In this document: piece after piece, positions 6,001 to 30,356 of the stretch
How the letters are laid out: each line of letters opens with the position of its first letter
Numbering within the stretch: the stretch's first letter is position 1
DNA from: Laetmonice hystrix
Taxonomy: Eukaryota
Assembly (NCBI GenBank): GCA_965235115.1
Contig: OZ249436.1
Span: 4,962,001-5,026,000, forward strand
Reading direction: 5' to 3'
Length of the DNA stretch: 64,000 nt
The notes under the pieces: generated by a model
The model's input: only the letters and a program-made list of their open reading frames with translations
What the model was told of the DNA's origin: nothing
Databases searched by the model: none
Made by a program: the position numbers and the translations under genes

Positions 6001-9000
6001 GGACAATAAAGGCATGGAAACATAAAACATGAGGCGTCCCTATACTACTGGCTACTCTTGTATTCAAGCAGACGGTACAGGAAGGCCAAACAGTACAGGG
6101 AGGAATCGCTACAAGGTATACTGGCTTGCCTAGCACCCAAGCGAACACTACAGTGAGGCCGAACAGTACACTGTGGGGCCAAACAGTGTGGTAGGCCAAC
6201 CAGTAGAGTGAGAAGTCCCTACATCTTACCCGTTGGCCTCTCGTAGCCATGCAAAAACTACAGTGAGGTAGTATAAACGAAAGGTACAGGCGAGGAGCAT
6301 CTAATGTTAAAATCTGGAGAAGATACTCGAATGTTAAGTGTACACATCACAACCATATATCTATAGCGAACGTACGAGACCTATACGTTTGACAGTTATA
6401 CATCTGGCCTAAGAATCATAATTTTTGGGGACGTAGTTTCAATTCGACGTATCATTTTTCGCTTATCATTGCTTTAACCTGTCTCTCGCCTAAGAGCCAC
6501 AGGTGCCTGCCAGCCCGGCCAGGTGTACGTGGTGATTCCACCGTTGGCCGGAAGGCGGCAGTGCAGTCAGCCTCGCCGCCGCCGCTGCGCTGCACCCTGG
6601 TGTTTTCTGCCTGCACCATCTCTGTGTAGTCCTTCTTTGCTTGTTCGTTACTTGGCGATGGGATATCTAATATAGAAAAGGCGTACAACGTCATTTGCCA
6701 TTGTTAACTAAACCTTGACGACAAACAGTCATCAAACCTTGCAACGTTGTTGGACGCTTACAGATGGTCTGTAGGGGACACAGATTAGATTGGAGTAGAT
6801 GATAGACCAAACGTATGGCCTGCCTCCTGGACAATAAAGGCATGAAAACATAAAACATGAGGCGTCCCTATACTACTGGCTACTCTTGTATTCAAGCAGA
6901 CGGTACAGGAAGGCCAAACAGTACAGGGAGGAATCGCTACAAGGTATACTGGCTTGCCTAGCACCCAAGCGAACACTACAGTGAGGCCGAACAGTACACT
7001 GTGGGGCCAAACAGTGTGGTAGGCCAACCAGTAGAGTGAGAAGTCCCTACATCTTACCCGTTGGCCTCTCGTAGCCATGCAAAAACTATACAGTGAGGTA
7101 GTATAAATGAAAGGTACAGGCGAGGAGCATCTAATGTTAAAATCTGGAGAAGATACTCGAATGTTAAGTGTACACATCACAACCATATATCTGTAGCGAA
7201 CGTACGAGACCTATACGTTTGACAGTTATACATCTGGCCTAAGAATAATAATTTTTGGGGGCGTAGTTTCAATTCGACGTATCATTTTTCGCTTATCATT
7301 GCTTTAACCTGTCTCTCGCCTAAGAGCCACAGGTGCCTGCCAGCCCGGCCAGGTGTACGTGGTGATTCCACCGTTGGCCGGAAGGCGGCAGTGCAGTCAG
7401 CCTCGCCGCCGCCGCTGCGCTGCACCCTGGTGTTTTCTGCCTGCACCATCTCTGTGTAATCCTCCTTTGCTTGTTCGTTACTTGGCGATGGGATATCTAA
7501 TATAGAAAAGGCGTACAACGTCATTTGCCATTGTTAACTAAACCTTGACGGCAAACAGTCATCAAACCTTGCAACGTTGTTGGACGCTTACAGATGGTCT
7601 GTAGGGGACACAGATTAGATTGGAGTAGATGATAGACCAAACGTATGGCCTGCCTCCTGGACAATAAAGGCATGGAAACATAAAACATGAGGCGTCCCTA
7701 TACTACTGGCTACTCTTGTATTCAAGCAGACGGTACAGGAAGGCCAAACAGTACAGGGAGGAATCGCTACAAGGTATACTGGCTTGCCTAGCACCCAAGC
7801 GAACACTACAGTGAGGCCGAACAGTACACTGTGGGGCCAAACAGTGTGGTAGGCCAACCAGTAGAGTGAGAAGTCCCTACATCTTACCCGTTGGCCTCTC
7901 GTAGCCATGCAAAAACTACAGTGAGGTAGTATAAACGAAAGGTACAGGCGAGGAGCATCTAATGTTAAAATCTGGAGAAGATACTCGAATGTTAAGTGTA
8001 CACATCACAACCATATATCTATAGCGAACGTACGAGACCTATACGTTTGACAGTTATACATCTGGCCTAAGAATCATAATTTTTGGGGACGTAGTTTCAA
8101 TTCGACGTATCATTTTTCGCTTATCATTGCTTTAACCTGTCTCTCGCCTAAGAGCCACAGGTGCCTGCCAGCCCGGCCAGGTGTACGTGGTGATTCCACC
8201 GTTGGCCGGAAGGCGGCAGTGCAGTCAGCCTCGCCGCCGCCGCTGCGCTGCACCCTGGTGTTTTCTGCCTGCACCATCTCTGTGTAGTCCTTCTTTGCTT
8301 GTTCGTTACTTGGCGATGGGATATCTAATATAGAAAAGGCGTACAACGTCATTTGCCATTGTTAACTAAACCTTGACGACAAACAGTCATCAAACCTTGC
8401 AACGTTGTTGGACGCTTACAGATGGTCTGTAGGGGACACAGATTAGATTGGAGTAGATGATAGACCAAACGTATGGCCTGCCTCCTGGACAATAAAGGCA
8501 TGAAAACATAAAACATGAGGCGTCCCTATACTACTGGCTACTCTTGTATTCAAGCAGACGGTACAGGAAGGAAAAAACAGTACAGGGAGGAATCGCTACA
8601 AGGTATACTGGCTTGCCTAGCACCCAAGCGAACACTACAGTGAGGCCGAACAGTACACTGTGGGGCCAAACAGTGTGGTAGGCCAACCAGTAGAGTGAGA
8701 AGTCCCTACATCTTACCCGTTGGCCTCTCGTAGCCATGCAAAAACTATACAGTGAGGTAGTATAAATGAAAGGTACAGGCGAGGAGCATCTAATGTTAAA
8801 ATCTGGAGAAGATACTCGAATGTTAAGTGTACACATCACAACCATATATCTGTAGCGAACGTACGAGACCTATACGTTTGACAGTTATACATCTGGCCTA
8901 AGAATAATAATTTTTGGGGGCGTAGTTTCAATTCGACGTATCATTTTTCGCTTATCATTGCTTTAACCTGTCTCTCGCCTAAGAGCCACAGGTGCCTGCC

Positions 9001-12000
9001 AGCCCGGCCAGGTGTACGTGGTGATTCCACCGTTGGCCGGAAGGCGGCAGTGCAGTCAGCCTCGCCGCCGCCGCTGCGCTGCACCCTGGTGTTTTCTGCC
9101 TGCACCATCTCTGTGTAATCCTCCTTTGCTTGTTCGTTACTTGGCGATGGGATATCTAATATAGAAAAGGCGTACAACGTCATTTGCCATTGTTAACTAA
9201 ACCTTGACGGCAAACAGTCATCAAACCTTGCAACGTTGTTGGACGCTTACAGATGGTCTGTAGGGGACACAGATTAGATTGGAGTAGATGATAGACCAAA
9301 CGTATGGCCTGCCTCCTGGACAATAAAGGCATGGAAACATAAAACATGAGGCGTCCCTATACTACTGGCTACTCTTGTATTCAAGCAGACGGTACAGGAA
9401 GGCCAAACAGTACAGGGAGGAATCGCTACAAGGTATACTGGCTTGCCTAGCACCCAAGCGAACACTACAGTGAGGCCGAACAGTACACTGTGGGGCCAAA
9501 CAGTGTGGTAGGCCAACCAGTAGAGTGAGAAGTCCCTACATCTTACCCGTTGGCCTCTCGTAGCCATGCAAAAACTACAGTGAGGTAGTATAAACGAAAG
9601 GTACAGGCGAGGAGCATCTAATGTTAAAATCTGGAGAAGATACTCGAATGTTAAGTGTACACATCACAACCATATATCTATAGCGAACGTACGAGACCTA
9701 TACGTTTGACAGTTATACATCTGGCCTAAGAATCATAATTTTTGGGGACGTAGTTTCAATTCGACGTATCATTTTTCGCTTATCATTGCTTTAACCTGTC
9801 TCTCGCCTAAGAGCCACAGGTGCCTGCCAGCCCGGCCAGGTGTACGTGGTGATTCCACCGTTGGCCGGAAGGCGGCAGTGCAGTCAGCCTCGCCGCCGCC
9901 GCTGCGCTGCACCCTGGTGTTTTCTGCCTGCACCATCTCTGTGTAATCCTTCTTTGCTTGTTCGTTACTTGGCGATGGGATATCTAATATAGAAAAGGCG
10001 TACAACGTCATTTGCCATTGTTAACTAAACCTTGACGGCAAACAGTCATCAAACCTTGCAACGTTGTTGGACGCTTACAGATGGTCTGTAGGGGACACAG
10101 ATTAGATTGGAGTAGATGATAGACCAAACGTATGGCCTGCCTCCTGGACAATAAAGGCATGGAAACATAAAACATGAGGCGTCCCTATACTACTGGCTAC
10201 TCTTGTATTCAAGCAGACGGTACAGGAAGGCCAAACAGTACAGGGAGGAATCGCTACAAGGTATACTGGCTTGCCTAGCACCCAAGCGAACACTACAGTG
10301 AGGCCGAACAGTACACTGTGGGGCCAAACAGTGTGGTAGGCCAACCAGTAGAGTGAGAAGTCCCTACATCTTACCCGTTGGCCTCTCGTAGCCATGCAAA
10401 AACTACAGTGAGGTAGTATAAACGAAAGGTACAGGCGAGGAGCATCTAATGTTAAAATCTGGAGAAGATACTCGAATGTTAAGTGTACACATCACAACCA
10501 TATATCTATAGCGAACGTACGAGACCTATACGTTTGACAGTTATACATCTGGCCTAAGAATCATAATTTTTGGGGACGTAGTTTCAATTCGACGTATCAT
10601 TTTTCGCTTATCATTGCTTTAACCTGTCTCTCGCCTAAGAGCCACAGGTGCCTGCCAGCCCGGCCAGGTGTACGTGGTGATTCCACCGTTGGCCGGAAGG
10701 CGGCAGTGCAGTCAGCCTCGCCGCCGCCGCTGCGCTGCACCCTGGTGTTTTCTGCCTGCACCATCTCTGTGTAGTCCTTCTTTGCTTGTTCGTTACTTGG
10801 CGATGGGATATCTAATATAGAAAAGGCGTACAACGTCATTTGCCATTGTTAACTAAACCTTGACGACAAACAGTCATCAAACCTTGCAACGTTGTTGGAC
10901 GCTTACAGATGGTCTGTAGGGGACACAGATTAGATTGGAGTAGATGATAGACCAAACGTATGGCCTGCCTCCTGGACAATAAAGGCATGAAAACATAAAA
11001 CATGAGGCGTCCCTATACTACTGGCTACTCTTGTATTCAAGCAGACGGTACAGGAAGGCCAAACAGTACAGGGAGGAATCGCTACAAGGTATACTGGCTT
11101 GCCTAGCACCCAAGCGAACACTACAGTGAGGCCGAACAGTACACTGTGGGGCCAAACAGTGTGGTAGGCCAACCAGTAGAGTGAGAAGTCCCTACATCTT
11201 ACCCGTTGGCCTCTCGTAGCCATGCAAAAACTATACAGTGAGGTAGTATAAATGAAAGGTACAGGCGAGGAGCATCTAATGTTAAAATCTGGAGAAGATA
11301 CTCGAATGTTAAGTGTACACATCACAACCATATATCTGTAGCGAACGTACGAGACCTATACGTTTGACAGTTATACATCTGGCCTAAGAATAATAATTTT
11401 TGGGGGCGTAGTTTCAATTCGACGTATCATTTTTCGCTTATCATTGCTTTAACCTGTCTCTCGCCTAAGAGCCACAGGTGCCTGCCAGCCCGGCCAGGTG
11501 TACGTGGTGATTCCACCGTTGGCCGGAAGGCGGCAGTGCAGTCAGCCTCGCCGCCGCCGCTGCGCTGCACCCTGGTGTTTTCTGCCTGCACCATCTCTGT
11601 GTAATCCTCCTTTGCTTGTTCGTTACTTGGCGATGGGATATCTAATATAGAAAAGGCGTACAACGTCATTTGCCATTGTTAACTAAACCTTGACGGCAAA
11701 CAGTCATCAAACCTTGCAACGTTGTTGGACGCTTACAGATGGTCTGTAGGGGACACAGATTAGATTGGAGTAGATGATAGACCAAACGTATGGCCTGCCT
11801 CCTGGACAATAAAGGCATGGAAACATAAAACATGAGGCGTCCCTATACTACTGGCTACTCTTGTATTCAAGCAGACGGTACAGGAAGGCCAAACAGTACA
11901 GGGAGGAATCGCTACAAGGTATACTGGCTTGCCTAGCACCCAAGCGAACACTACAGTGAGGCCGAACAGTACACTGTGGGGCCAAACAGTGTGGTAGGCC

Positions 12001-15000
12001 AACCAGTAGAGTGAGAAGTCCCTACATCTTACCCGTTGGCCTCTCGTAGCCATGCAAAAACTACAGTGAGGTAGTATAAACGAAAGGTACAGGCGAGGAG
12101 CATCTAATGTTAAAATCTGGAGAAGATACTCGAATGTTAAGTGTACACATCACAACCATATATCTATAGCGAACGTACGAGACCTATACGTTTGACAGTT
12201 ATACATCTGGCCTAAGAATCATAATTTTTGGGGACGTAGTTTCAATTCGACGTATCATTTTTCGCTTATCATTGCTTTAACCTGTCTCTCGCCTAAGAGC
12301 CACAGGTGCCTGCCAGCCCGGCCAGGTGTACGTGGTGATTCCACCGTTGGCCGGAAGGCGGCAGTGCAGTCAGCCTCGCCGCCGCCGCTGCGCTGCACCC
12401 TGGTGTTTTCTGCCTGCACCATCTCTGTGTAATCCTTCTTTGCTTGTTCGTTACTTGGCGATGGGATATCTAATATAGAAAAGGCGTACAACGTCATTTG
12501 CCATTGTTAACTAAACCTTGACGGCAAACAGTCATCAAACCTTGCAACGTTGTTGGACGCTTACAGATGGTCTGTAGGGGACACAGATTAGATTGGAGTA
12601 GATGATAGACCAAACGTATGGCCTGCCTCCTGGACAATAAAGGCATGGAAACATAAAACATGAGGCGTCCCTATACTACTGGCTACTCTTGTATTCAAGC
12701 AGACGGTACAGGAAGGCCAAACAGTACAGGGAGGAATCGCTACAAGGTATACTGGCTTGCCTAGCACCCAAGCGAACACTACAGTGAGGCCGAACAGTAC
12801 ACTGTGGGGCCAAACAGTGTGGTAGGCCAACCAGTAGAGTGAGAAGTCCCTACATCTTACCCGTTGGCCTCTCGTAGCCATGCAAAAACTACAGTGAGGT
12901 AGTATAAACGAAAGGTACAGGCGAGGAGCATCTAATGTTAAAATCTGGAGAAGATACTCGAATGTTAAGTGTACACATCACAACCATATATCTATAGCGA
13001 ACGTACGAGACCTATACGTTTGACAGTTATACATCTGGCCTAAGAATCATAATTTTTGGGGACGTAGTTTCAATTCGACGTATCATTTTTCGCTTATCAT
13101 TGCTTTAACCTGTCTCTCGCCTAAGAGCCACAGGTGCCTGCCAGCCCGGCCAGGTGTACGTGGTGATTCCACCGTTGGCCGGAAGGCGGCAGTGCAGTCA
13201 GCCTCGCCGCCGCCGCTGCGCTGCACCCTGGTGTTTTCTGCCTGCACCATCTCTGTGTAGTCCTTCTTTGCTTGTTCGTTACTTGGCGATGGGATATCTA
13301 ATATAGAAAAGGCGTACAACGTCATTTGCCATTGTTAACTAAACCTTGACGACAAACAGTCATCAAACCTTGCAACGTTGTTGGACGCTTACAGATGGTC
13401 TGTAGGGGACACAGATTAGATTGGAGTAGATGATAGACCAAACGTATGGCCTGCCTCCTGGACAATAAAGGCATGAAAACATAAAACATGAGGCGTCCCT
13501 ATACTACTGGCTACTCTTGTATTCAAGCAGACGGTACAGGAAGGCCAAACAGTACAGGGAGGAATCGCTACAAGGTATACTGGCTTGCCTAGCACCCAAG
13601 CGAACACTACAGTGAGGCCGAACAGTACACTGTGGGGCCAAACAGTGTGGTAGGCCAACCAGTAGAGTGAGAAGTCCCTACATCTTACCCGTTGGCCTCT
13701 CGTAGCCATGCAAAAACTATACAGTGAGGTAGTATAAATGAAAGGTACAGGCGAGGAGCATCTAATGTTAAAATCTGGAGAAGATACTCGAATGTTAAGT
13801 GTACACATCACAACCATATATCTGTAGCGAACGTACGAGACCTATACGTTTGACAGTTATACATCTGGCCTAAGAATAATAATTTTTGGGGGCGTAGTTT
13901 CAATTCGACGTATCATTTTTCGCTTATCATTGCTTTAACCTGTCTCTCGCCTAAGAGCCACAGGTGCCTGCCAGCCCGGCCAGGTGTACGTGGTGATTCC
14001 ACCGTTGGCCGGAAGGCGGCAGTGCAGTCAGCCTCGCCGCCGCCGCTGCGCTGCACCCTGGTGTTTTCTGCCTGCACCATCTCTGTGTAATCCTCCTTTG
14101 CTTGTTCGTTACTTGGCGATGGGATATCTAATATAGAAAAGGCGTACAACGTCATTTGCCATTGTTAACTAAACCTTGACGGCAAACAGTCATCAAACCT
14201 TGCAACGTTGTTGGACGCTTACAGATGGTCTGTAGGGGACACAGATTAGATTGGAGTAGATGATAGACCAAACGTATGGCCTGCCTCCTGGACAATAAAG
14301 GCATGGAAACATAAAACATGAGGCGTCCCTATACTACTGGCTACTCTTGTATTCAAGCAGACGGTACAGGAAGGCCAAACAGTACAGGGAGGAATCGCTA
14401 CAAGGTATACTGGCTTGCCTAGCACCCAAGCGAACACTACAGTGAGGCCGAACAGTACACTGTGGGGCCAAACAGTGTGGTAGGCCAACCAGTAGAGTGA
14501 GAAGTCCCTACATCTTACCCGTTGGCCTCTCGTAGCCATGCAAAAACTACAGTGAGGTAGTATAAACGAAAGGTACAGGCGAGGAGCATCTAATGTTAAA
14601 ATCTGGAGAAGATACTCGAATGTTAAGTGTACACATCACAACCATATATCTATAGCGAACGTACGAGACCTATACGTTTGACAGTTATACATCTGGCCTA
14701 AGAATCATAATTTTTGGGGACGTAGTTTCAATTCGACGTATCATTTTTCGCTTATCATTGCTTTAACCTGTCTCTCGCCTAAGAGCCACAGGTGCCTGCC
14801 AGCCCGGCCAGGTGTACGTGGTGATTCCACCGTTGGCCGGAAGGCGGCAGTGCAGTCAGCCTCGCCGCCGCCGCTGCGCTGCACCCTGGTGTTTTCTGCC
14901 TGCACCATCTCTGTGTAGTCCTTCTTTGCTTGTTCGTTACTTGGCGATGGGATATCTAATATAGAAAAGGCGTACAACGTCATTTGCCATTGTTAACTAA

Positions 15001-16125
15001 ACCTTGACGACAAACAGTCATCAAACCTTGCAACGTTGTTGGACGCTTACAGATGGTCTGTAGGGGACACAGATTAGATTGGAGTAGATGATAGACCAAA
15101 CGTATGGCCTGCCTCCTGGACAATAAAGGCATGAAAACATAAAACATGAGGCGTCCCTATACTACTGGCTACTCTTGTATTCAAGCAGACGGTACAGGAA
15201 GGCCAAACAGTACAGGGAGGAATCGCTACAAGGTATACTGGCTTGCCTAGCACCCAAGCGAACACTACAGTGAGGCCGAACAGTACACTGTGGGGCCAAA
15301 CAGTGTGGTAGGCCAACCAGTAGAGTGAGAAGTCCCTACATCTTACCCGTTGGCCTCTCGTAGCCATGCAAAAACTATACAGTGAGGTAGTATAAATGAA
15401 AGGTACAGGCGAGGAGCATCTAATGTTAAAATCTGGAGAAGATACTCGAATGTTAAGTGTACACATCACAACCATATATCTGTAGCGAACGTACGAGACC
15501 TATACGTTTGACAGTTATACATCTGGCCTAAGAATAATAATTTTTGGGGGCGTAGTTTCAATTCGACGTATCATTTTTCGCTTATCATTGCTTTAACCTG
15601 TCTCTCGCCTAAGAGCCACAGGTGCCTGCCAGCCCGGCCAGGTGTACGTGGTGATTCCACCGTTGGCCGGAAGGCGGCAGTGCAGTCAGCCTCGCCGCCG
15701 CCGCTGCGCTGCACCCTGGTGTTTTCTGCCTGCACCATCTCTGTGTAATCCTCCTTTGCTTGTTCGTTACTTGGCGATGGGATATCTAATATAGAAAAGG
15801 CGTACAACGTCATTTGCCATTGTTAACTAAACCTTGACGGCAAACAGTCATCAAACCTTGCAACGTTGTTGGACGCTTACAGATGGTCTGTAGGGGACAC
15901 AGATTAGATTGGAGTAGATGATAGACCAAACGTATGGCCTGCCTCCTGGACAATAAAGGCATGGAAACATAAAACATGAGGCGTCCCTATACTACTGGCT
16001 ACTCTTGTATTCAAGCAGACGGTACAGGAAGGCCAAACAGTACAGGGAGGAATCGCTACAAGGTATACTGGCTTGCCTAGCACCCAAGCGAACACTACAG
16101 GCTCGACCACCAAAGCTCCTTTTTT

Positions 16126-16459
16126 AGGGGAGTGGCGGTGGCCTAGTGGGCATGGATGTCAACACCTTATGCTATGCGAATGGGTGCAGTAATCTTAGGG
16201 CCTGGGTTCGATTCCTGTAGAGGACTATACAACTTTTCTCTTTAGGGACATTGTCAAAGTAATTGGGTTACCCCTGATGCCCGTGCATTTCAAAAGAAAA
16301 ATACAGTCTACGCCAGTGCCAGGATTACCTTAACAGTCAATGTTCGGTAGAAATCATGTGTAGCTCTAACTAGGAAAATATGGATTCCGTCTCATTTCAA
16401 AAAGATGTGTGTAGGGGGGAGGGTCCATTGTCCTGCTCGACCACCAAAGCTCCTTTTTT
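16126..16459 (+). ncRNA. Putative 334-nt Pol III transcript (monomer from AGGGGAG to TTTTTT), predicted rod-like fold
   Basis: A box TGGCCTAGTGG at 16139-16149, B box GGTTCGATTCC at 16205-16215, and a T6 run ending each unit immediately before the next head. Extensive self-complementarity across the unit was seen by eye. Transcription is not shown, and an internal TTTT at 16234-16237 could terminate early. Confidence 0.55.
16139..16215 (+). promoter_or_regulatory. Type-2 RNA polymerase III internal promoter (A and B boxes), repeated in each 334-bp copy
   Basis: TGGCCTAGTGG matches the A-box consensus TRGCNNARYNG. GGTTCGATTCC matches the B-box consensus GGTTCGANTCC. The boxes are 55 nt apart. 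Confidence 0.75.
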
Positions 16460-19400
16460 AGGGGAGTGGCGGTGGCCTAGTGGGCATGGATGTCAACACC
16501 TTATGCTATGCGAATGGGTGCAGTAATCTTAGGGCCTGGGTTCGATTCCTGTAGAGGACTATACAACTTTTCTCTTTAGGGACATTGTCAAAGTAATTGG
16601 GTTACCCCTGATGCCCGTGCATTTCAAAAGAAAAATACAGTCTACGCCAGTGCCAGGATTACCTTAACAGTCAATGTTCGGTAGAAATCATGTGTAGCTC
16701 TAACTAGGAAAATATGGATTCCGTCTCATTTCAAAAAGATGTGTGTAGGGGGGAGGGTCCATTGTCCTGCTCGACCACCAAAGCTCCTTTTTTAGGGGAG
16801 TGGCGGTGGCCTAGTGGGCATGGATGTCAACACCTTATGCTATGCGAATGGGTGCAGTAATCTTAGGGCCTGGGTTCGATTCCTGTAGAGGACTATACAA
16901 CTTTTCTCTTTAGGGACATTGTCAAAGTAATTGGGTTACCCCTGATGCCCGTGCATTTCAAAAGAAAAATACAGTCTACGCCAGTGCCAGGATTACCTTA
17001 ACAGTCAATGTTCGGTAGAAATCATGTGTAGCTCTAACTAGGAAAATATGGATTCCGTCTCATTTCAAAAAGATGTGTGTAGGGGGGAGGGTCCATTGTC
17101 CTGCTCGACCACCAAAGCTCCTTTTTTAGGGGAGTGGCGGTGGCCTAGTGGGCATGGATGTCAACACCTTATGCTATGCGAATGGGTGCAGTAATCTTAG
17201 GGCCTGGGTTCGATTCCTGTAGAGGACTATACAACTTTTCTCTTTAGGGACATTGTCAAAGTAATTGGGTTACCCCTGATGCCCGTGCATTTCAAAAGAA
17301 AAATACAGTCTACGCCAGTGCCAGGATTACCTTAACAGTCAATGTTCGGTAGAAATCATGTGTAGCTCTAACTAGGAAAATATGGATTCCGTCTCATTTC
17401 AAAAAGATGTGTGTAGGGGGGAGGGTCCATTGTCCTGCTCGACCACCAAAGCTCCTTTTTTAGGGGAGTGGCGGTGGCCTAGTGGGCATGGATGTCAACA
17501 CCTTATGCTATGCGAATGGGTGCAGTAATCTTAGGGCCTGGGTTCGATTCCTGTAGAGGACTATACAACTTTTCTCTTTAGGGACATTGTCAAAGTAATT
17601 GGGTTACCCCTGATGCCCGTGCATTTCAAAAGAAAAATACAGTGAGGCCGAACAGTACACTGTGGGGCCAAACAGTGTGGTAGGCCAACCAGTAGAGTGA
17701 GAAGTCCCTACATCTTACCCGTTGGCCTCTCGTAGCCATGCAAAAACTACAGTGAGGTAGTATAAACGAAAGGTACAGGCGAGGAGCATCTAATGTTAAA
17801 ATCTGGAGAAGATACTCGAATGTTAAGTGTACACATCACAACCATATATCTATAGCGAACGTACGAGACCTATACGTTTGACAGTTATACATCTGGCCTA
17901 AGAATCATAATTTTTGGGGACGTAGTTTCAATTCGACGTATCATTTTTCGCTTATCATTGCTTTAACCTGTCTCTCGCCTAAGAGCCACAGGTGCCTGCC
18001 AGCCCGGCCAGGTGTACGTGGTGATTCCACCGTTGGCCGGAAGGCGGCAGTGCAGTCAGCCTCGCCGCCGCCGCTGCGCTGCACCCTGGTGTTTTCTGCC
18101 TGCACCATCTCTGTGTAATCCTCCTTTGCTTGTTCGTTACTTGGCGATGGGATATCTAATATAGAAAAGGCGTACAACGTCATTTGCCATTGTTAACTAA
18201 ACCTTGACGGCAAACAGTCATCAAACCTTGCAACGTTGTTGGACGCTTACAGATGGTCTGTAGGGGACACAGATTAGATTGGAGTAGATGATAGACCAAA
18301 CGTATGGCCTGCCTCCTGGACAATAAAGGCATGGAAACATAAAACATGAGGCGTCCCTATACTACTGGCTACTCTTGTATTCAAGCAGACGGTACAGGAA
18401 GGCCAAACAGTACAGGGAGGAATCGCTACAAGGTATACTGGCTTGCCTAGCACCCAAGCGAACACTACAGTGAGGCCGAACAGTACACTGTGGGGCCAAA
18501 CAGTGTGGTAGGCCAACCAGTAGAGTGAGAAGTCCCTACATCTTACCCGTTGGCCTATCGTAGCCATGCAAAAACTACAGTGAGGTAGTATAAACGAAAG
18601 GTACAGGCGAGGAGCATCTAATGTTAAAATCTGGAGAAGATACTCGAATGTTAAGTGTACACATCACAACCATATATCTATAGCGAACGTACGAGACCTA
18701 TACGTTTGACAGTTATACATCTGGCCTAAGAATCATAATTTTTGGAGACGTAGTTTCAATTCGACGTATCATTTTTCGCTTATCATTGCTTTAACCTGTC
18801 TCTCGCCTAAGAGCCACAGGTGCCTGCCAGCCCGGCCAGGTGTACGTGGTGATTCCACCGTTGGCCGGAAGGCGGCAGTGCAGTCAGCCTCGCCGCCGCC
18901 GCTGCGCTGCACCCTGGTGTTTTCTGCCTGCACCATCTCTGTGTAGTCCTTCTTTGCTTGTTCGTTACTTGGCGATGGGATATCTAATATAGAAAAGGCG
19001 TACAACGTCATTTGCCATTGTTAACTAAACCTTGACGGCAAACAGTCATCAAACCTTGCAACGTTGTTGGACGCTTACAGATGGTCTGTAGGGGACACAG
19101 ATTAGATTGGAGTAGATGATAGACCAAACGTATGGCCTGCCTCCTGGACAATAAAGGCATGAAAACATAAAACATGAGGCGTCCCTATACTACTGGCTAC
19201 TCTTGTATTCAAGCAGACGGTACAGGAAGGCCAAACAGTACAGGGAGGAATCGCTACAAGGTATACTGGCTTGCCTAGCACCCAAGCGAACACTACAGTG
19301 AGGCCGAACAGTACACTGTGGGGCCAAACAGTGTGGTAGGCCAACCAGTAGAGTGAGAAGTCCCTACATCTTACCCGTTGGCCTCTCGTAGCCATGCAAA

Positions 19401-22400
19401 AACTACAGTGAGGTAGTATAAACGAAAGGTACAGGCGAGGAGCATCTAATGTTAAAATCTGGAGAAGATACTCGAATGTTAAGTGTACACATCACAACCA
19501 TATATCTATAGCGAACGTACGAGACCTATACGTTTGACAGTTATACATCTGGCCTAAGAATCATAATTTTTGGGGACGTAGTTTCAATTCGACGTATCAT
19601 TTTTCGCTTATCATTGCTTTAACCTGTCTCTCGCCTAAGAGCCACAGGTGCCTGCCAGCCCGGCCAGGTGTACGTGGTGATTCCACCGTTGGCCGGAAGG
19701 CGGCAGTGCAGTCAGCCTCGCCGCCGCCGCTGCGCTGCACCCTGGTGTTTTCTGCCTGCACCATCTCTGTGTAATCCTTCTTTGCTTGTTCGTTACTTGG
19801 CGATGGGATATCTAATATAGAAAAGGCGTACAACGTCATTTGCCATTGTTAACTAAACCTTGACGGCAAACAGTCATCAAACCTTACAACGTTGTCGGAC
19901 GCTTACAGATGGTCTGTAGGTGACACAGATTAGATTGGAGTAGATGATAGACCAAACGTATGGCCTGCCTCCTGGACAATAAAGGCATGGAAACATAAAA
20001 CATGAGGCGTCCCTATACTACTGGCTAGTCTTGTATTCAAGCAGACGGTACAGGAAGGCCAAACAGTACAGGGAGGAATCGCTACAAGGTATACTGGCTT
20101 GCCTAGCACCCAAGCGAACACTACAGTGAGGCCGAACAGTACACTGTGGGGCCAAACAGTGTGGTAGGCCAACCAGTAGAGTGAGAAGTCCCTACATCTT
20201 ACCCGTTGGCCTCTCGTAGCCATGCAAAAACTACAGTGAGGTAGTATAAATGAAAGGTACAGGCGAGGAGCATCTAATGTTAAAATCTGGAGAAGATACT
20301 CGAATGTTAAGTGTACACATCACAACCATATATCTATAGCGAACGTACGAGACCTATACGTTTGACAGTTATACATCTGGCCTAAGAATCAAAATTTTTG
20401 GGGGCGTAGTTTCAATTCGACGTATCATTTTTCGCTTATCATTGCTTTAACCTGTCTCTCGCCTAAGAGCCACAGGTGCCTGCCAGCCCGGCCAGGTGTA
20501 CGTGGTGATTCCACCGTTGGCCGGAAGGCGGCAGTGCAGTCAGCCTCGCCGCCGCCGCTGCGCTGCACCCTGGTGTTTTCTGCCTGCACCATCTCTGTGT
20601 AATCCTTCTTTGCTTGTTCGCTACTTGGCGATGGGATATCTAATATAGAAAAGGCGTACAACGTCATTTGCCATTGTTAACTAAACCTTTACGGCAAACA
20701 GTCATCAAACCTTAGAACGTTGTCGGACGCTTACAGATGGTCTGTAGGGGACACAGATTAGATTGGAGTAGATGATAGACCAAACGTATGGCCTGCCTCC
20801 TGGACAATAAAGGCATGGAAACATAAAACATGAGGCGTCCCTATACTACTGGCTAGTCTTGTATTCAAGCAGACGGTACAGGAAGGCCAAACAGTACAGG
20901 GAGGAATCGCTACAAGGTATACTGGCTTGCCTAGCACCCAAGCGAACACTACAGTGAGGCCGAACGGTACACTGTGGGGCCAAACAGTGTGGTAGGCCAA
21001 CCAGTAGAGTGAGAAGTCCCTACATCTTACCCGTTGGCCTCTCGTAGCCATGCAAAAACTACAGTGAGGTAGTATAAATGACAGGTACAGGCGAGGAGCA
21101 TCTAATGTTAAAATCTGGAGAAGATACTCGAATGTTAAGTGTACACATCACAACCATATATCTATAGCGAACGTACGAGACCTATACGTTTGACAGTTAT
21201 ACATCTGGCCTAAGAATCATAATTTTTGGGGGCGTACTTTCAATTCGACGTATCATTTTTCGCTTATCATTGCTTTAACCTGTCTCTCGCCTAAGAGCCA
21301 CAGGTGCCTGCCAGCCCGGCCAGGTGTACGTGGTGATTCCACCGTTGGCCGGAAGGCGGCAGTGCAGTCAGCCTCGCCGCCGCCGCTGCGCTGCACCCTG
21401 GTGTTTTCTGCCTGCACCATCTCTGTGTAATCCTTCTTTGCTTGTTCGTTACTTGGCGATGGGATATCTAATATAGAAAAGGCGTACAACGTCATTTGCC
21501 ATTGTTAACTAAACCTTGACGGCAAACAGTCATCAAACCTTGCAACGTTGTCGGACGCTTACAGATGGTCTGTAGGGGACACAGATTAGATTGGAGTAGA
21601 TGATAGACCAAACGTATGGCCTGCCTCCTGGACAATAAAGGCATGGAAACATAAAACATGAGGCGTCCCTATACTACTGGCTAGTCTTGTATTCAAGCAG
21701 ACGGTACAGGAAGGCCAAACAGTACAGGGAGGAATCGCTACAAGGTATACTGGCTTGCCTAGCACCCAAGCGAACACTACAGTGAGGCCGAACAGTACAC
21801 TGTGGGGCCAAACAGTGTGGTAGGCCAACCAGTAGATTGAGAAGTCCCTACATCTTACCCGTTGGCCTCTCGTAGCCATGCAAAAACTACAGTGAGGTAG
21901 TATAAATGAAAGGTACAGGCGGGGAGCATCTAATGTTAAAATCTGGAGAAGATACTCGAATGTTAAGTGTACACATCACAACCATATATCTGTAGCGAAC
22001 GTACGAGACCTATACGTTTGACAGTTATACATCTGGCCTAAGAATAATAATTTTAGGGGGCGTAGTTTCAATTCGACGTATCATTTTTCGCTTATCATTG
22101 CTTTAACCTGTCTCTCGCCTAAGAGCCACAGGTGCCTGCCAGCCCGGCCAGGTGTACGTGGTGATTCCACCGTTGGCCGGAAGGCGGCAGTGCAGTCAGC
22201 CTCGCCGCCGTCGCTGCGCTGCACCCTGGTGTTTTCTGCCTGCACCATCTCTGTGTAATCCTTCTTTGCTTGTTCGCTACTTGGCGATGGGATATCTAAT
22301 ATAGAAAAGGCGTACAACGTCATTTGCCATTGTTAACTAAACCTTTACGGCAAACAGTCATCAAACCTTAGAACGTTGTCGGACGCTTACAGATGGTCTG

Positions 22401-25400
22401 TAGGGGACACAGATTAGATTGGAGTAGATGATAGACCAAACGTATGGCCTGCCTCCTGGACAATAAAGGCATGGAAACATAAAACATGAGGCGTCCCTAT
22501 ACTACTGGCTAGTCTTGTATTCAAGCAGACGGTACAGGAAGGCCAAACAGTACAGGGAGGAATCGCTACAAGGTATACTGGCTTGCCTAGCACCCAAGCG
22601 AACACTACAGTGAGGCCGAACAGTACACTGTGGGGCCAAACAGTGTGGTAGGCCAACCAGTAGAGTGAGAAGTCCCTACATCTTACCCGTTGGCCTCTCG
22701 TAGCCATGCAAAAACTACAGTGAGGTAGTATAAATGAAAGGTACAGGCGAGGAGCATCTAATGTTAAAATCTGGAGAAGATACTCGAATGTTAAGTGTAC
22801 ACATCACAACCATATATCTATAGCGAACGTACGAGACCTATACGTTTGACAGTTATACATCTGGCCTAAGAATCATAATTTTTGGGGACGTAGTTTCAAT
22901 TCGACGTATCATTTTTCGCTTATCATTGCTTTAACCTGTCTCTCGCCTAAGAGCCACAGGTGCCTGCCAGCCCGGCCAGGTGTACGTGGTGATTCCACCG
23001 TTGGCCGGAAGGCGGCAGTGCAGTCAGCCTCGCCGCCGCCGCTGCGCTGCACCCTGGTGTTTTCTGCCTGCACCATCTCTGTGTAATTCTTCTTTGCTTG
23101 TTCGTTACTTGGCGATGGGATATCTAATATAGAAAAGGCGTACAACGTCATTTGCCATTGTTAACTAAACCTTGACGGCAAACAGTCATCAAACCTTGCA
23201 ACGTTGTCGGACGCTTACAGATGGTCTGTAGGGGACACAGATTAGATTGGAGTAGATGATAGACCAAACGTATGGCCTGCCTCCTGGACAATAAAGGCAT
23301 GGAAACATAAAACATGAGGCGTCCCTATACTACTGGCTACTCTTGTATTCAAGCAGACGGTACAGGAAGGCCAAACAGTACAGGGAGGAATCGCTACAAG
23401 GTATACTGGCTTGCCTAGCACCCAAGCGAACACTACAGTGAGGCCGAACAGTACACTGTGGGGCCAAACAGTGTGGTAGGCCAACCAGTAGAGTGAGAAG
23501 TCCCTACATCTTACCCGTTGGCCTCTCGTAGCCATGCAAAAACTACAGTGAGGTAGTATAAATGAAAGGTACAGGCGAGGAGCATCTAATGTTAAAATCT
23601 GGAGAAGATACTCGAATGTTAAGTGTACACATCACAACCATATATCTATAGCGAACGTACGAGACCTATACGTTTGACAGTTATACATCTGGCCTAAGAA
23701 TCATAATTTTTGGGGACGTAGTTTCAATTCGACGTATCATTTTTCGCTTATCATTGCTTTAACCTGTCTCTCGCCTAAGAGCCACAGGTGCCTGCCAGCC
23801 CGGCCAGGTGTACGTGGTGATTCCACCGTTGGCCGGAAGGCGGCAGTGCAGTCAGCCTCGCCGCCGCCGCTGCGCTGCACCCTGGTGTTTTCTGCCTGCA
23901 CCATCTCTGTGTAATCCTTCTTTGCTTGTTCGTTACTTGGCGATGGGATATCTAATATAGAAAAGGCGTACAACGTCATTTGCCATTGTTAACTAAACCT
24001 TGACGGCAAACAGTCATCAAACCTTGCAACGTTGTCGGACGCTTACAGATGGTCTGTAGGGGACACAGATTAGATTGGAGTAGATGATAGACCAAACGTA
24101 TGGCCTGCCTCCTGGACAATAAAGGCATGGAAACATAAAACATGAGGCGTCCCTATACTACTGGCTACTCTTGTATTCAAGCAGACGGTACAGGAAGGCC
24201 AAACAGTACAGGGAGGAATCGCTACAAGGTATACTGGCTTGCCTAGCACCCAAGCGAACACTACAGTGAGGCCGAACAGTACACTGTGGGGCCAAACAGT
24301 GTGGTAGGCCAACCAGTAGAGTGAGAAGTCCCTACATCTTACCCGTTGGCCTCTCGTAGCCATGCAAAAACTACAGTGAGGTAGTATAAATGAAAGGTAC
24401 AGGCGGGGAGCATCTAATGTTAAAATCTGGAGAAGATACTCGAATGTTAAGTGTACACATCACAACCATATATCTGTAGCGAACGTACGAGACCTATACG
24501 TTTGACAGTTATACATCTGGCCTAAGAATCATAATTTTTCGGGGCGTAGTTTCAATTTGACGGATCATTTTTCGCTTATCATTGCTTTAACCTGTCTCTC
24601 GCCTAAGAGCCACAGGTGCCTGCCAGCCCGGCCAGGTGTACGTGGTGATTCCACCGTTGGCCGGAAGGCGGCAGTGCAGTCAGCCTCGCCGCCGTCGCTG
24701 CGCTGCACCCTGGTGTTTTCTGCCTGCACCATCTCTGTGTAATCCTTCTTTGCTTGTTCGCTACTTGGCGATGGGATATCTAATATAGAAAAGGCGTACA
24801 ACGTCATTTGCCATTGTTAACTAAACCTTTACGGCAAACAGTCATCAAACCTTACAACGTTGTCGGACGCTTACAGATGGTCTGTAGGGGACACACATTA
24901 GATTGGAGTAGATGATAGACCAAACGTATGGCCTGCCTCCTGGACAATAAAGGCATGGAAACATAAAACATGAGGCGTCCCTATACTACTGGCTAGTCTT
25001 GTATTCAAGCAGACGGTACAGGAAGGCCAAACAGTACAGGGAGGAATCGCTACAAGGTATACTGGCTTGCCTAGCACCCAAGCGAACACTACAGTGAGGC
25101 CGAACAGTACACTGTGGGGCCAAACAGTGTGGTAGGCCAACCAGTAGAGTGAGAAGTCCGTACATCTTACCCGTTGGCCTCTCGTAGCCATGCAAAAACT
25201 ACAGTGAGGTAGTATAAATGAAAGGTACAGGCGAGGAGCATCTAATGTTAAAATCTGGAGAAGATACTCGAATGTTAAGTGTACACATCACAACCATATA
25301 TCTATAGCGAACGTACGAGACCTATACGTTTGACAGTTATACATCTGGCCTAAGAATCATAATTTTTGGGGACGTAGTTTCAATTCGACGTATCATTTTT

Positions 25401-28400
25401 CGCTTATCATTGCTTTAACCTGTCTCTCGCCTAAGAGCCACAGGTGCCTGCCAGCCCGGCCAGGTGTACGTGGTGATTCCACCGTTGGCCGGAAGGCGGC
25501 AGTGCAGTCAGCCTCGCCGCCGTCGCTGCGCTGCACCCTGGTGTTTTCTGCCTGCATCATCTCTGTGTAATCCTTCTTTGCTTGTTCGTTACTTGGCGAT
25601 GGGATATCTAATATAGAACAGGCGTACAACGTCATTTGCCATTGTTAACTAAACCTTGACGGCAAACAGTCATCAAACCTTGCAACGTTGTCGGACGCTT
25701 ACAGATGGTCTGTAGGGGACACAGATTAGATTGGAGTAGATGATAGACCAAACGTATGGCCTGCCTCCTGGACAATAAAGGCATGGAAACATAAAACATG
25801 AGGCGTCCCTATACTACTGGCTAGTCTTGTATTCAAGCAGACGGTACAGAAAGGCCAAACAGTACAGGGAGGAATCGCTACAAGGTATACTGGCTTGCCT
25901 AGCACCCAAGCAAACACTACAGTGAGGCCGAACAGTACACTGTGGGGCCAAACAGTGTGGTAGGCCAACCAGTAGAGTGAGAAGTCCCTACATCTTACCC
26001 GTTGGCCTCTCGTAGCCATGCAAAAACTACAGTGAGGTAGCATAAATGAAAGGTACAGGCGAGGAGCAGCTAATGTTAAAATCTGGAGAAGATACTCGAA
26101 TGTTAAGTGTACACATCACTTGTAACCATATATCTGTAGCGAACGTACGACACCTATACATTTGACAGTTATACATCTGGCCTAAGAATCATAATTTTTG
26201 GGGGCGTAGTTTCAATTCGACGTATCATTTTTCGCTTATCATTGCTTTTACCTGTCTCTCGCCTAAGAGCCACAGGTGCCTGCCAGCCCGGCCAGGTGTA
26301 CGTGGTGATTCCACCGTTGGCCGGAAGGCGGCAGTGCAGTCAGCCTCGTCGCCGTCGCTGCGCTGCATCCTGGTGTTTTCTGCCTGCACCATCTCTGTGT
26401 AATCCTTCTTTGCTTGTTCGTTACTTGGCGATGGGATATCTAATATAGAAAAGGCGTACAACGTCATTTGCCATTGTTAACTAAACCTTGACGGCAAACA
26501 GTCATCAAACCTTGCAACGTTGTCGGACGCTTACAGATGGTCTGTAGGGGACACAGATTAGATTGGAGTAGATGATAGACCAAACGTATGGCCTGCCTCC
26601 TGGACAATAAAGGCATGGAAACATAAAACATGAGGCGTCCCTATACTACTGGCTAGTCTTGTATTCAAGCAGACGGTACAGGAAGGCCAAACAGTACAGG
26701 GAGGAATCGCTACAAGGTATACTGGCTTGCCTAGCAACCAAGCGAACACTACAGTGAGGCCGAACAGTACACTGTGGGGTCAAACAGTGTGGTAGGCCAA
26801 CCAGTAGAGTGAAAAGTCCCTACATCTTACCCGTTGGCCTCTCGTAGCCATGCAAAAACTACAGTGAGGTAGCATAAATGAAAGGTACAGGCGAGGAGCA
26901 GCTAATGTTAAAATCTGGAGAAGATACTCGAATGTTAAGGGTACACATCACTTGTAACCATATATCTGTAGCGAACGTACGAAACCTATACGTTTGACAG
27001 TTATACATCTGGCCTAAGAATCATAATTTTTGGGGGCGTAGTTTCAATTCGACGTATCATTTTTCGCTTATCATTGCTTTAACCTGTCTCTCGCCTAAGA
27101 GCCACAGGTGCCTGCCAGCCCGGCCAGGTGTACGTGGTGATTCCACCGTTGGCCGGAAGGCGGCAGTGCAGTCAGCCTCGCCGCCGTCGCTGCGCTGCAC
27201 CCTATTGTTTTCTGCCTGCACCATCTCTGTGTAGGGCCTCATCCTTCTTTGCTTGTTCGTTACTTGGCGATGGGATATCTAATATAGAAAAGGCGTACAA
27301 CGTCATTTGCCATTGTTAACTAAACCTTGACGGCAAACAGTCATCAAACCATGCAACGTTGTTGGACGCTTACAGATGGTCTGTAGGCGACACAGATTAG
27401 ATTGGAGTAGATGATAGACCAAACGTATGGCCTGCCTCCTGGACAATAAAGGCATGGAAACATAAAACATGAGGCGTCCCTATACTACTGGCTAGTCTTG
27501 TATTCAAGCAGACGGTACAGGAAGGCCAAACAGTACAGGGAGGAATCGCTACAAGGTATACTGGCTTGCCTAGCACCCAAGCGAACACTACAGTGAGGCC
27601 GAACAGTACACTGTGGGGCCAAACAGTGTGGTAGGCCAACCAGTAGAGTGAAAAGTCCCTACATCTTACCCGTTGGCCTCTCGTAGCCATGCAAAAACTA
27701 CAGTGAGGTAGTATAAATGAAAGGTACAGGCGAGGAGCATCTAATGTTAAAATCTGGAGACGATGCTCGAATGTTAAGTGTACACATCACAACCATATAT
27801 CTGTAGCGAACGTACGAGACCTATACGTTTGACAGTTATACATCTGGCCTAAGAATCATAATTTTAGGGGGCGTACTTTCAATTCGACGTATCACTTTTC
27901 GCTTATCATTGCTTTAACCTGTCTCTCGCCTAAGAGCCACAGGTGCCTGCCAGCCCGGCCAGGTGTACGTGGTGATTCCACCGTTGGCCGGAAGGCGGCA
28001 GTGCAGTCAGCCTCGCCGCCGTCGCTGCGCTGCACCCTGGTGTTTTCTGCCTGCACCATCTCTGTGTAATCCTTCTTTGCTTGTTCGCTACTTGGCGATG
28101 GGATATCTAATATAGAAAAGGCGTACAACGTCATTTGCCATTGTTAACTAAACCTTGACGGCAAACAGTCATCAAACCTTGCAACGTTGTCGGACGCTTA
28201 CAGATGGTCTGTAGGGGACACAGATTAGATTGGAGTAGATGATAGACCAAACGTATGGCCTGCCTCCTGGACAATAAAGGCATGGAAACATAAAACATGA
28301 GGCGTCCCTATACTACTGGCTAGTCTTGTATTGAAGCAGACGGTACAGGAAGGCCAAACAGTACAGGGAGGAATCGCTACAAGGTATACTGGCTTGCCTA

Positions 28401-29262
28401 GCACCCAAGCGAACACTACAGTGAGGCCGAACAGTACACTGTGGGGCCAAACAGTGTGGTAGGCCAACCAGTAGAGTGAGAAGTCCCTACATCTTACCCG
28501 TTGGCCTCTCGTAGCCATGCAAAAACTACAGTGAGGTAGTATAAATGAAAGGTACAGGCGGGGAGCATCTAATGTTAAAATCTGGAGAAGATACTCGAAT
28601 GTTAAGTGTAGGCCTACACATCACAACCATATATCTGTAGCGAACGTACGAGACCTATACGTTTGACAGTTATACATCTGGCCTAAGAATCATAATTTTA
28701 GGGGGCGTAGTTTCAATTCGACGGATCATTTTTCGCTTATCATTGCTTTAACCTGTCTCTCGCCTAAGAGCCACAGGTGCCTGCCAGCCCGGCCAGGTGT
28801 ACGTGGTGATTCCACCGTTGGCCGGAAGGCGGCAGTGCAGTCAGCCTCGCCGCCGCCGCTGCGCTGCACCCTGGTGTTTTCTGCCTGCAACATCTCTGTG
28901 TTATCCTTCTTTGTTTGTTTGTTACTTGGCGATGGGATATCTGATATAGAAAAGGCGTACAACGTCATTTGCCATTGTTAACTAAACCTTTACGGCAAAC
29001 AGTCATTAGGACGACCTCACAACGTTGTCGGACGCTTACAGATGGTCTGTAGGTGACACAGATTAGATTGGAGTAGATGATGGACCAAACGTATGGCCTG
29101 CCTCCTGGACAATAAAGGCATGGAAACATGAAACATGAGGCGTCCCTATAGGCTATACTACTGGCTACTCTTGTATACAAGCAAACGGTACAGGGAGGCC
29201 AAACAGTACAGGGAGGAATCGCTATGTACAAGGTATACTGGCTGGCCTAGCACCCAAGCGAA

Positions 29263-29408
29263 GACACCTTATGCTATGCGAATGGGTGCAGTAATCTTAG
29301 GGCCTGGGTTCGGTTCCTGTAGAGGACTATACAACTTTTCTCTTTAGGGACATTGTCAAAGTAATTGGGTTACCCCTGATGCCCGTGCATTTCAAAAGAA
29401 AAATACAG
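29263..29408 (+). mobile_element. 5'-truncated copy (about 145 bp) of the 334-bp element at the same target site
   Basis: ACACCTTATGC...AAAAGAAAAATACAG matches 16162-16306 with one substitution (GGTTCGGTTCC). It is followed by TGAGGCAGAAC, the same host position as the 17642 junction. Confidence 0.92.
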
Positions 29409-29666
29409 TGAGGCAGAACAGTACACTGTGGGGCCAAGCAGTGTGGGAGGCCAACAGTAGAGTGGGAAGTCCCTACATCTTACCGGTTGGCCTCTCGTAG
29501 CCATGCAAAAACTACAGTGAGGTAGTATAAATGAAAGGTACAGGCGAGGAGCATCTAATGTTAAAATCTGGAGAAGATACTCGAATGGGAAGCGGTACAC
29601 ATCACAACCATATATCTGTAGCGAACGTACGAGACCTTATAGGTTTGCCTTGTGTGGACAGGGCAT

Positions 29667-30356
29667 AAGGCCCGACAGTACATGTAGAGAGCCCTTACTG
29701 TAGTGTTTGCTCGAGTATGACGCCAGTCAATACATGTAGGGAGCCCTCACTGTACTGTTTGCTCCAGCCCAACCCAGTCATGACATAGAGGCAGCCCTTA
29801 CTGTAGTGTTTGCTGCAGTCTGAGGCTAGTCAATACATGTAGGGAGCCCTCACTGTAATGTTTGCTCCAGTCTAAAGCTAGCCAATATACGTAGAGAGCC
29901 CTCACTGTAGTGTTTGCTTAAGTATAAGGCCAGTCAATATATATGTAGGGAGCCCTCACTGTAGGGTTTGCTCTAGCCCAAGGGCAATTTCAATACATGT
30001 AGGGAGCCCTCATTGTAGTGTTTGCTAGAGTAGATCTATAAGGCCAGTCAGTACATCTGGTGAGCCCTCACTAGTGTTTGCTCAAGTATAAGGCCAGACA
30101 GTACATGTAGAGAGCCCTCACCTTAGTGTTTGCTCGAGTATAAGGCTAGTCAATAAATGGAGGGATCCCTCACTGTAGTGTTTGCTCCAGCCCAAGGGCG
30201 GTCACTACATGTAAGGAGCCCTCACTCTAGTCTTTGCTCGATTATAAGGCCAGTCAGTACATGTGGTGAGCCCTCACTGTAGTCTTTGCTCGAGTACAGT
30301 ACATGTTGGGAGCCCTCGCAGAGTGGTTGCTCGAGTATAAGGCCAGTCAATATTAT
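29667..30356. repeat. About 52-bp minisatellite, about 13 diverged copies; resumes at 35004-35058 after a transposon
   Basis: Consensus is approximately CATGTAGGGAGCCCTCACTGTAGTGTTTGCTCGAGTATAAGGCCAGTCAATA. One more unit follows the TIR element from 35011. Confidence 0.92.

Follow-up and report, generated by a model that had tools for sequence, protein, structure and literature searches.

The insert at 29263..29408 of the window, the 64-kb stretch of contig C1 analysed here, is very probably a copy of a non-autonomous retroelement that is moved in trans by a Penelope-like element (PLE) resident in the same genome. The window belongs to a 627-Mb eukaryotic assembly, to which all genome-wide counts refer. 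The reading is built on observed copy numbers, on junctions, on the domains of the partner, on motifs common to the two elements and on a joint change of segment and target. The element itself, a short, non-coding unit of 334 nt that is arranged head-to-tail and dispersed as monomers and multimers, appears retrozyme-like in its working but hammerhead-free, and SINE-like but without a terminal tail or duplications; it is referred to below as the SINE.

How PLEs prime, and why they form tandems, are open questions in the field. Here a young intact PLE shares one genome with a non-coding passenger of high copy number, and older forms of the two elements are present as well. The system gives a minimal cis element in the form of a stem-loop of about 100-200 nt, with a natural 207-bp mini-PLE keeping only that region, as well as a defined target and a natural specificity switch. 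It makes testable the mobilisation of a SINE-like RNA by a PLE in trans, the formation of tandems without a ribozyme, and the role of RNA in the choice of site.

Two inserts at one site of a satellite array

The host is a satellite with a repeat length of about 828 bp; an array of 34 units occupies positions 1..29640 (plus strand), with one intact CACTACAGTGAGG in each uninterrupted unit. Two of the 34 units are broken by inserts, both at the same site. Within window positions 1-16000 a few variant types of the 828-bp unit alternate in a higher-order pattern, and the units are more diverged nearer the end of the array. A 52-bp satellite, which is free of inserts and has its target sites on the opposite strand, adjoins that end (29665-30352). 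Across the window CACTACAGTGAGG is found at 1-29640, 29665-30352 and 35020.

Insert 1 (16101..17642, plus strand) comprises four full 334-nt units plus 206 nt (4.6 units), arranged head-to-tail and with 0 differences among them; unit positions are numbered such that position 1 is the base after the tail-TACAG junction (window 16307). Its length of 1,542 bp and its duplication of TACAG, an uncommon type of junction, were both re-measured and agree with the original prediction, and it occupies a different host unit from insert 2 at the same site. Insert 2 (29263..29408, plus strand) is a 5'-truncated single copy that spans unit positions 189-334, the last five bases of which, TACAG, are common to the target. 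The two inserts share the predicted 3' end, terminating in AAAAGAAAAATACAG and then running into TGAGG, and this tail sequence occurs at 6 places in the window, where 0.02 would be expected. Within insert 2 a B-box-like motif (29307..29317, plus strand) holds a private change of A to G that is seen in 1 of 151 copies; it is followed by an upstream cis motif (29350..29392, plus strand), which is common to the PLE 3' UTR and represents the 5' arm of the junction stem, and by the fixed 3' junction (29394..29413, plus strand), where the A-rich tail gives way to the target TACAG-TGAGG.

The left host flank of insert 2 (29253..29262, plus strand) lacks the CAC of the intact target, and the 5' junction reads as host GCGAA, then G, then ACACC. 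Most of the family has G at unit position 189 (73 of 95 distinct contexts), as insert 2 does at 29263, whereas the units of insert 1 all have A, such that insert 2 comes from a different source allele. It had been proposed that insert 2 was about 145 bp long with a single difference from insert 1, and that it had lost target bases at an AACAC microhomology. A recount does give 1 difference in 145 bases, and the CAC of the host is indeed lost, but a length of 146 bp and 2 differences is the preferable reading, the G189 allele taking the place of the microhomology.

The host of insert 2 is the last unit of the array and, as predicted, is diverged: over the 83 bp immediately to the right it differs from the host of insert 1 by 1 indel and 5 substitutions, with 6 matching bases ahead of the first difference, and the two flanks together (about 620 bp) show about 28 substitutions (hand count). 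The related proposal that the insert is younger than its host is supported when insert and host divergence are compared using 1/145 (Fisher p = 0.028) but is weakened when 2/146 is used.

The SINE-like family and its probable Penelope-like partner

Genome-wide the 334-nt unit is represented by 4,292 exact tails and 2,408 head-to-tail junctions, with a reversed-pattern control of 0 in each case; copies were read with their flanks at 92 loci, against thousands of sites genome-wide. What makes the unit SINE-like? An A-box-like motif (unit 167-177; 16139..16149, plus strand) is kept in old and young subfamilies, and a B-box or T-loop-like motif (unit 233-243; 16205..16215, plus strand) gives a weak T-loop match (E 1.5), both motifs being named by their likeness to the A- and B-box consensus. 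The two persist in copies that are 72-100% alike, and their spacing exceeds that of a standard tRNA. A run of T6 followed by A (unit 148-154; 16120..16126, plus strand) is a candidate Pol III terminator and a candidate start; the run is not strictly conserved, ranging from T3 to T8, and an internal T4 elsewhere in the unit would have to be read through by Pol III. For a transcript that extends from 154 to the next T run, the predicted fold pairs both ends with most pair probabilities at 0.98-1.0, and matched changes preserve this end-pairing stem across the old and young subfamilies. Neither ARAGORN nor Rfam made a tRNA call in the window, where Rfam also found no known RNA family at gathering score, only the T-loop fragment at E 1.5. 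Among contigs from four sequencing runs, the unit has a tandem or circular form in three runs of unknown kind and an uneven depth in one, which is not readable as expression; among the runs listed for this stretch none is of RNA.

In other respects the unit departs from a typical SINE. The tail is internal and near-constant in length (59 of 82 identical), and target-site duplications are not typical of the inserts, the commonest junction offset being 0 (19 of 48). A relaxed descriptor, which detects the hammerhead of the PLE, found none on either strand in 61 of 61 full-length SINE variants; Rfam likewise gave no hammerhead in the SINE, but missed the control hammerhead of the PLE too. An HDV-like ribozyme was considered on the basis of 24 overlapping plus-strand matches to a loose, control-free descriptor with a P2 of 4-5 bp, and was rejected. 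The rod shape that had been attributed to the unit, as a rod-like circular RNA, also fails (fold z = +0.18 for the plus and +0.52 for the minus strand, 100 shuffles each), and in the models only the local stem around the junction appears to have support.

The original prediction placed an RT/endonuclease partner outside the window and proposed a check for longer RT-encoding elements at the target. A pattern search from which the SINE tail and the intact target were excluded, and which covered the TCAGGTGG flank only, returned a second tail at the target in 3 of 34 rows, and this tail belongs to a PLE of 5,581-bp period whose copies are tandem or partial-tandem. Its tail has 99 matches, 45 of them tandem and 54 in flanks (hand count), with 24 of the 54 flank ends reading TACAGT(C/G)AGG; the tail pattern fixes TAC, and its last letter misses about a quarter of sites. 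The 64-kb window itself has no match to the PLE.

ORF2 of the PLE (L075) encodes 759 aa, in which RVT_1 (E 7e-10) is followed by GIY-YIG (E 8e-8) within one ORF, and the translation reads with a C-x4-C-xx-C linker before the endonuclease and CCHH residues. The leader carries a minimal type I hammerhead core with a palindromic helix III. By these features the partner is a Penelope-like element, putatively of Neptune/Nematis type, as that type is described in the cited passages of PMC8557442. The comparison with R2, NeSL and Tx1 elements that had been drawn is replaced, among the families at the searched flank, by a Penelope-like element with a GIY-YIG endonuclease. The PLE is young, with many intact copies. 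Over the C-terminal 207 aa about 90 of its 152 matches reach 98-100% identity, and many lie in open 759-aa frames. Relatives number 1,653 among 8,000 scored candidates, those listed having similar domain sets; a DNA scan of metagenomes found none, and a comparison of ORF2 with the PDB gave no sequence match. Upstream of ORF2 lies an ORF (L075:945-3464, contig C7) of 839 aa from stop to stop with NADAR (E 3e-24) and GDSL-like esterase domains, a pairing that is unusual for a retrotransposon ORF1; GDSL ORFs are known in Athena PLEs, as reported in the relevant passage of PMC5408684.

The likeness between SINE and PLE is confined to the surroundings of the junction, with 87% identity over 30 nt downstream (E 2.5e-4) and 78% over 45 nt upstream (E 0.003). 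In the SINE this tandem junction (16302..16331, plus strand) consists of the target-like priming segment TACAGTC followed by the downstream cis motif that is common to the PLE. Where the PLE has its hammerhead-bearing leader the SINE has the A and B boxes and the T run. Both motif arms are predicted to pair as a stem that encloses the priming site, and at one position of this stem the few sequences compared show three different pairs, G-C (young SINE), C-G (old SINEs) and U-A (PLE). The stem segment of the SINE alone folds no better than shuffles (z = +0.49), and old SINEs retain a PLE-like hairpin ahead of the tail. That the similarity is short, at 30 and 45 nt with E of ~1e-3 to 1e-4, counts against mobilisation by the PLE. 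The 16-nt shared motif is also found alone after a tyrosine-kinase-like exon at L079, probably by chance; L079 and L082, which have this motif only, were set aside, and L083 is a young-type copy. In a minisatellite target at L074:418-1392 (contig C20) a 207-bp head-to-tail repeat, the mini-PLE, contains the PLE junction region only and represents a natural minimal element, in which unit variants alternate.

Target, priming and template

Exact SINE tails are followed by TACAGT(C/G)AGG at 1,227 ends genome-wide (control 0). In loci L001-L041, which were found by similarity and not by flank, 55 of 64 3' ends fall at unit position 329 or beyond and 9 of 64 lie off the junction, as expected from the fixed 3' end and variable 5' truncation of the original prediction. 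Among the best 100 of the 4,292 tail matches there are, by hand count, 57 tandem junctions and 43 flanks, and these 43 read TAC in 39 cases, TACAG in 33, TACAGT(C/G)AGG in 13 and TACAGTGAGG in 3. The proposed check of 3' flanks thus finds ends that are fixed and mostly at TACAG, but the strict TGAGG specificity does not hold (3 of 43 non-tandem ends in that sample): the target is looser than CACTACAGTGAGG. Flank homology to the RNA continuation amounts to at least 4 nt in 37 of 42 distinct flanks, which agrees with the suggestion that priming takes place on the shared TACAGT. On the 5' side a recognisable host motif is present at 48 of 99 distinct junctions, some few of the listed rows being no genuine ends of inserts. 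Of these 48, 19 directly follow CAC and 29 lie no more than one base away, with only 2 keeping five further bases as insert 1 does. From these counts the typical event is a flush insertion at CAC|TACAG, without duplication, and the cut position originally proposed, directly before TGAGG, has to be moved.

The intact target site is present 96,812 times genome-wide (control 33), in the 828-bp, 52-bp and short GC-skewed minisatellite families. The 13-mer CACTACAGTGAGG is common to several otherwise unrelated satellites (828-bp, 52-bp and others), in about 95,000 copies. The flanks of the SINE represent at least three unrelated satellites as well as unique DNA, and homologous satellites with TGAGG junctions are found elsewhere at loci L031, L037, L052 and L061. 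With 747 filled against 1,898 empty sites of the C type, and 480 filled against 94,914 empty sites of the G type, the C type has by far the higher occupancy. Loci L065, L036, L053 and L033 are small minisatellite clusters in which adjacent units carry as many as seven separate SINE inserts, some of which adjoin PLE fragments.

Has the target always been the same? Searched for next to other neighbouring sequence, the shared downstream motif turned up in 27 rows; eight of these were examined, and five of the eight are older SINE copies, 72-85% alike, that carry a TCAC(A/T)CA-like segment instead of TACAGTC; most have an extra hairpin at the place of the PLE's hairpin. Old-type internal junctions with a TCACACA-like segment number 39 (control 0; selected by pattern). 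In an intermediate SINE subfamily 6 of 6 3' ends lie in TC(A/G)CT, that is, in TCAC-type repeats, as do old SINE ends at L084 and L091, while the old end at L078 matches neither target. A pattern for the oldest SINE tails was discarded as mostly noise (133 against a control of 60). Older PLE copies, 67-87% alike, likewise have their 3' ends in TCAC-type repeats: among the best 100 of 173 matches, with young copies and one unrelated repeat set aside, the 19 old PLE ends read TCAC in 11 cases, TCA in 14 and TACAG in 0. A pattern search found no old PLE tandem junction, so the RNA segment of the old PLE is presumed. A dispersed repeat with identical flanks (for instance at C1:99607 and C1:25555731) also contains a motif closely similar to that of the old PLE 3' end. 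The target has changed in both the SINE and the PLE, and the RNA segment has changed alongside it, at least in the SINE. This joint switch is the strongest argument for a dependence of the SINE on this PLE lineage and for a role of RNA-DNA pairing in priming.

How might such a copy arise? Pol III would transcribe the SINE from the A and B boxes, with a start near unit position 154 and termination one unit later at the T run, giving an RNA whose ends could pair. The PLE protein would bind the stem-loop common to SINE and PLE, and its GIY-YIG domain would, to judge from the junctions, cut near CAC|T in satellite DNA. The nicked bottom strand would then pair with the internal RNA segment UACAGU and prime reverse transcription there, rather than at the RNA end, a step to which the 4-7 nt of junction homology point. 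PLE junctions read TACAC at a variant site, which suggests that the fifth base of TACAG comes from the target; this would fit a nick to the left of TACAG with pairing of the primer to the RNA.

The 5' ends carry information on the template. Thirty loci chosen on the 3' junction alone consist of 16 single inserts, 11 multi-unit inserts and 3 duplicates. In the single inserts the 5' end falls at positions 152-195 in 13 of 16 and at 1-151 in none, whereas it falls at 152-195 in none of the 10 measurable multi-unit inserts. This pattern would fit two templates: linear transcripts with a 5' end near 154 could give rise to single inserts that stop at or before about 154, and a continuous template, either an RNA circle or a read-through multimer, could give rise to tandem inserts with scattered 5' ends. 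Units differ by a mean of 4.3 within arrays against 9.4 between them (17 arrays, two overlapping), with identical units in three arrays and alternating A-B-A-B variants in three (L007, L017, L074). The length of the T-run junction varies hardly more than that of other runs (103 spans), so that the multimers look templated and de novo end-joining at each insertion is disfavoured.

Could the family instead have spread as DNA, either by rolling-circle (HUH) transposition or, at the shared TACAGT, through extrachromosomal circles that recombine or through gene conversion? Rolling-circle DNA transposition also yields perfect tandems with one fixed end, and the A-B-A-B variants could reflect unequal crossing-over. 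Such spread is nevertheless highly improbable, given that 13 of 16 single inserts stop just after the Pol III-like start, which indicates an RNA template, that the matching autonomous element encodes RT and GIY-YIG, and that flanks are drawn from at least three unrelated satellites and unique DNA. Still harder to credit is an ordinary SINE moved by a site-specific LINE of the R2, NeSL, R4 or Tx1 type, with the PLE merely sharing the niche. A fixed 3' end, 5' truncation and small target deletions, all seen here, are signs of target-primed reverse transcription in general, and the RTs of the genome were surveyed only by the filter on the TCAGGTGG flank. Yet in that search the PLE is the only second family at the target, and the SINE has PLE motifs to the left and right of the junction, is arranged in head-to-tail tandems as the PLE is, changed its target with the PLE and has an internal tail of near-constant length. 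The least probable account is that both window inserts go back to one insertion followed by deletion or conversion: they share a nucleotide and an array, 13 kb apart, and 2 differences in 146 bp are not clearly below the 4.5% of the host, but insert 2 has the family's other allele at 189, its junction has two extra bases and so is not the product of an AACAC deletion, the hosts already differ at no more than 7 bp from the junction, and another 480 junctions with TGAGG (1,227 minus 747) mean that the site is hit repeatedly. Inserts 1 and 2 are independent events, as originally proposed, a conclusion drawn chiefly from the allele, the junction and recurrence across the genome.

With mobilisation by the PLE as the preferred reading, what selects the site? 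It is conceivable, if on balance rather doubtful, that the 5-8 nt loop segment does so, with loose cutting at CAC|T and RNA pairing deciding which cuts are used, in a telomerase-like manner. In favour of this are the joint switch from TCAC to TACAG and the fit of CAC|T to both the old and the new targets (one old left junction, L091). The SINE, with C at position 7 of its RNA, ends in TCAGG in 747 of 1,227 cases and the PLE, with G, in 6 of 24 (p = 0.0005), although with clusters collapsed the bias is 36 of 65 against 6 of 20 (p = 0.07; hand counts). Against this, SINE and PLE alike use the C-type site far more than expected from its 2% of targets (1,898/96,812), and loops may have been captured from targets after a change in the protein. 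If loop selection were true, altering the segment would give a eukaryotic retrotransposon a new target, and the template, circular or pseudo-circular, would be a Pol III RNA that has paired ends and no ribozyme.

Relation to known systems

The non-LTR (animal) retrozymes resemble the SINE in having non-coding tandem units of about 170-400 nt with PLE-terminus sequence; PLE-driven movement has been proposed for them, with circles as proposed intermediates, and the passages concerned give no target analysis (PMC7229834; bioRxiv 10.64898/2026.07.22.740005). In the retrozymes so described each unit has a type I hammerhead, unlike the 61 of 61 SINE variants, and the SINE differs further in its A and B boxes, its T run and its target-matching priming segment. 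Schistosoma Sm-alpha and Sj-alpha are likewise tandem SINE-like units that are apparently transcribed by Pol III, as is presumed here, with the promoter of an upstream unit reading into the next; a hammerhead is present in these, and the passage on them names neither a partner enzyme nor a target (PMC6765202). A known non-autonomous partner of a PLE is the Chlamys-type MRC1, which differs in belonging to green algae and to the clade with an N-terminal endonuclease, and for which a Pol III head or target-matching segment is absent from the cited passages (PMC8557442).

With regard to the partner, Neptune and Nematis PLEs as described in part in PMC8557442 and PMC4209133 share with it the order of RT then GIY-YIG, the CX2-5CxxC linker and CCHH, as well as a minimal hammerhead with palindromic helix III, tandems and microsatellite-type targets (the latter in old copies here). 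The partner differs from these descriptions in its upstream NADAR and GDSL-like ORF, and in having moved from TCAC/CA repeats to CAC|TACAG satellites. Tandem structure and internal initiation are known features of PLEs. For Poseidon_Ac the passages on in vitro work in PMC11167929 describe cleavage of both DNA strands and a start of reverse transcription at a stem-loop internal to the RNA, as would be the case here. However, this purified lizard PLE, which prefers AT-rich sites, starts internally without homology to the cut DNA, in contrast to the 4-7 nt of homology here, and this weighs against mobilisation of the SINE by its PLE. A butterfly preprint (10.1101/596502) mentions short non-autonomous Penelope elements, in the passage concerned without detail. 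The full-text literature searched contains neither a PLE-moved, ribozyme-free tRNA-type SINE nor a joint switch; Repbase/Dfam, bioRxiv supplements and most subscription journals lay outside its scope, and a prior repeat-database entry for the element is possible.

The genome also holds a second, distant PLE-like family, with 33% identity and open frames of up to 789 aa. Its copies lie mostly near contig ends, including those of C2, C5, C6, C12, C15, C17, C18 and C21 (for instance C6:5024-5536), and the family is possibly telomere-associated.
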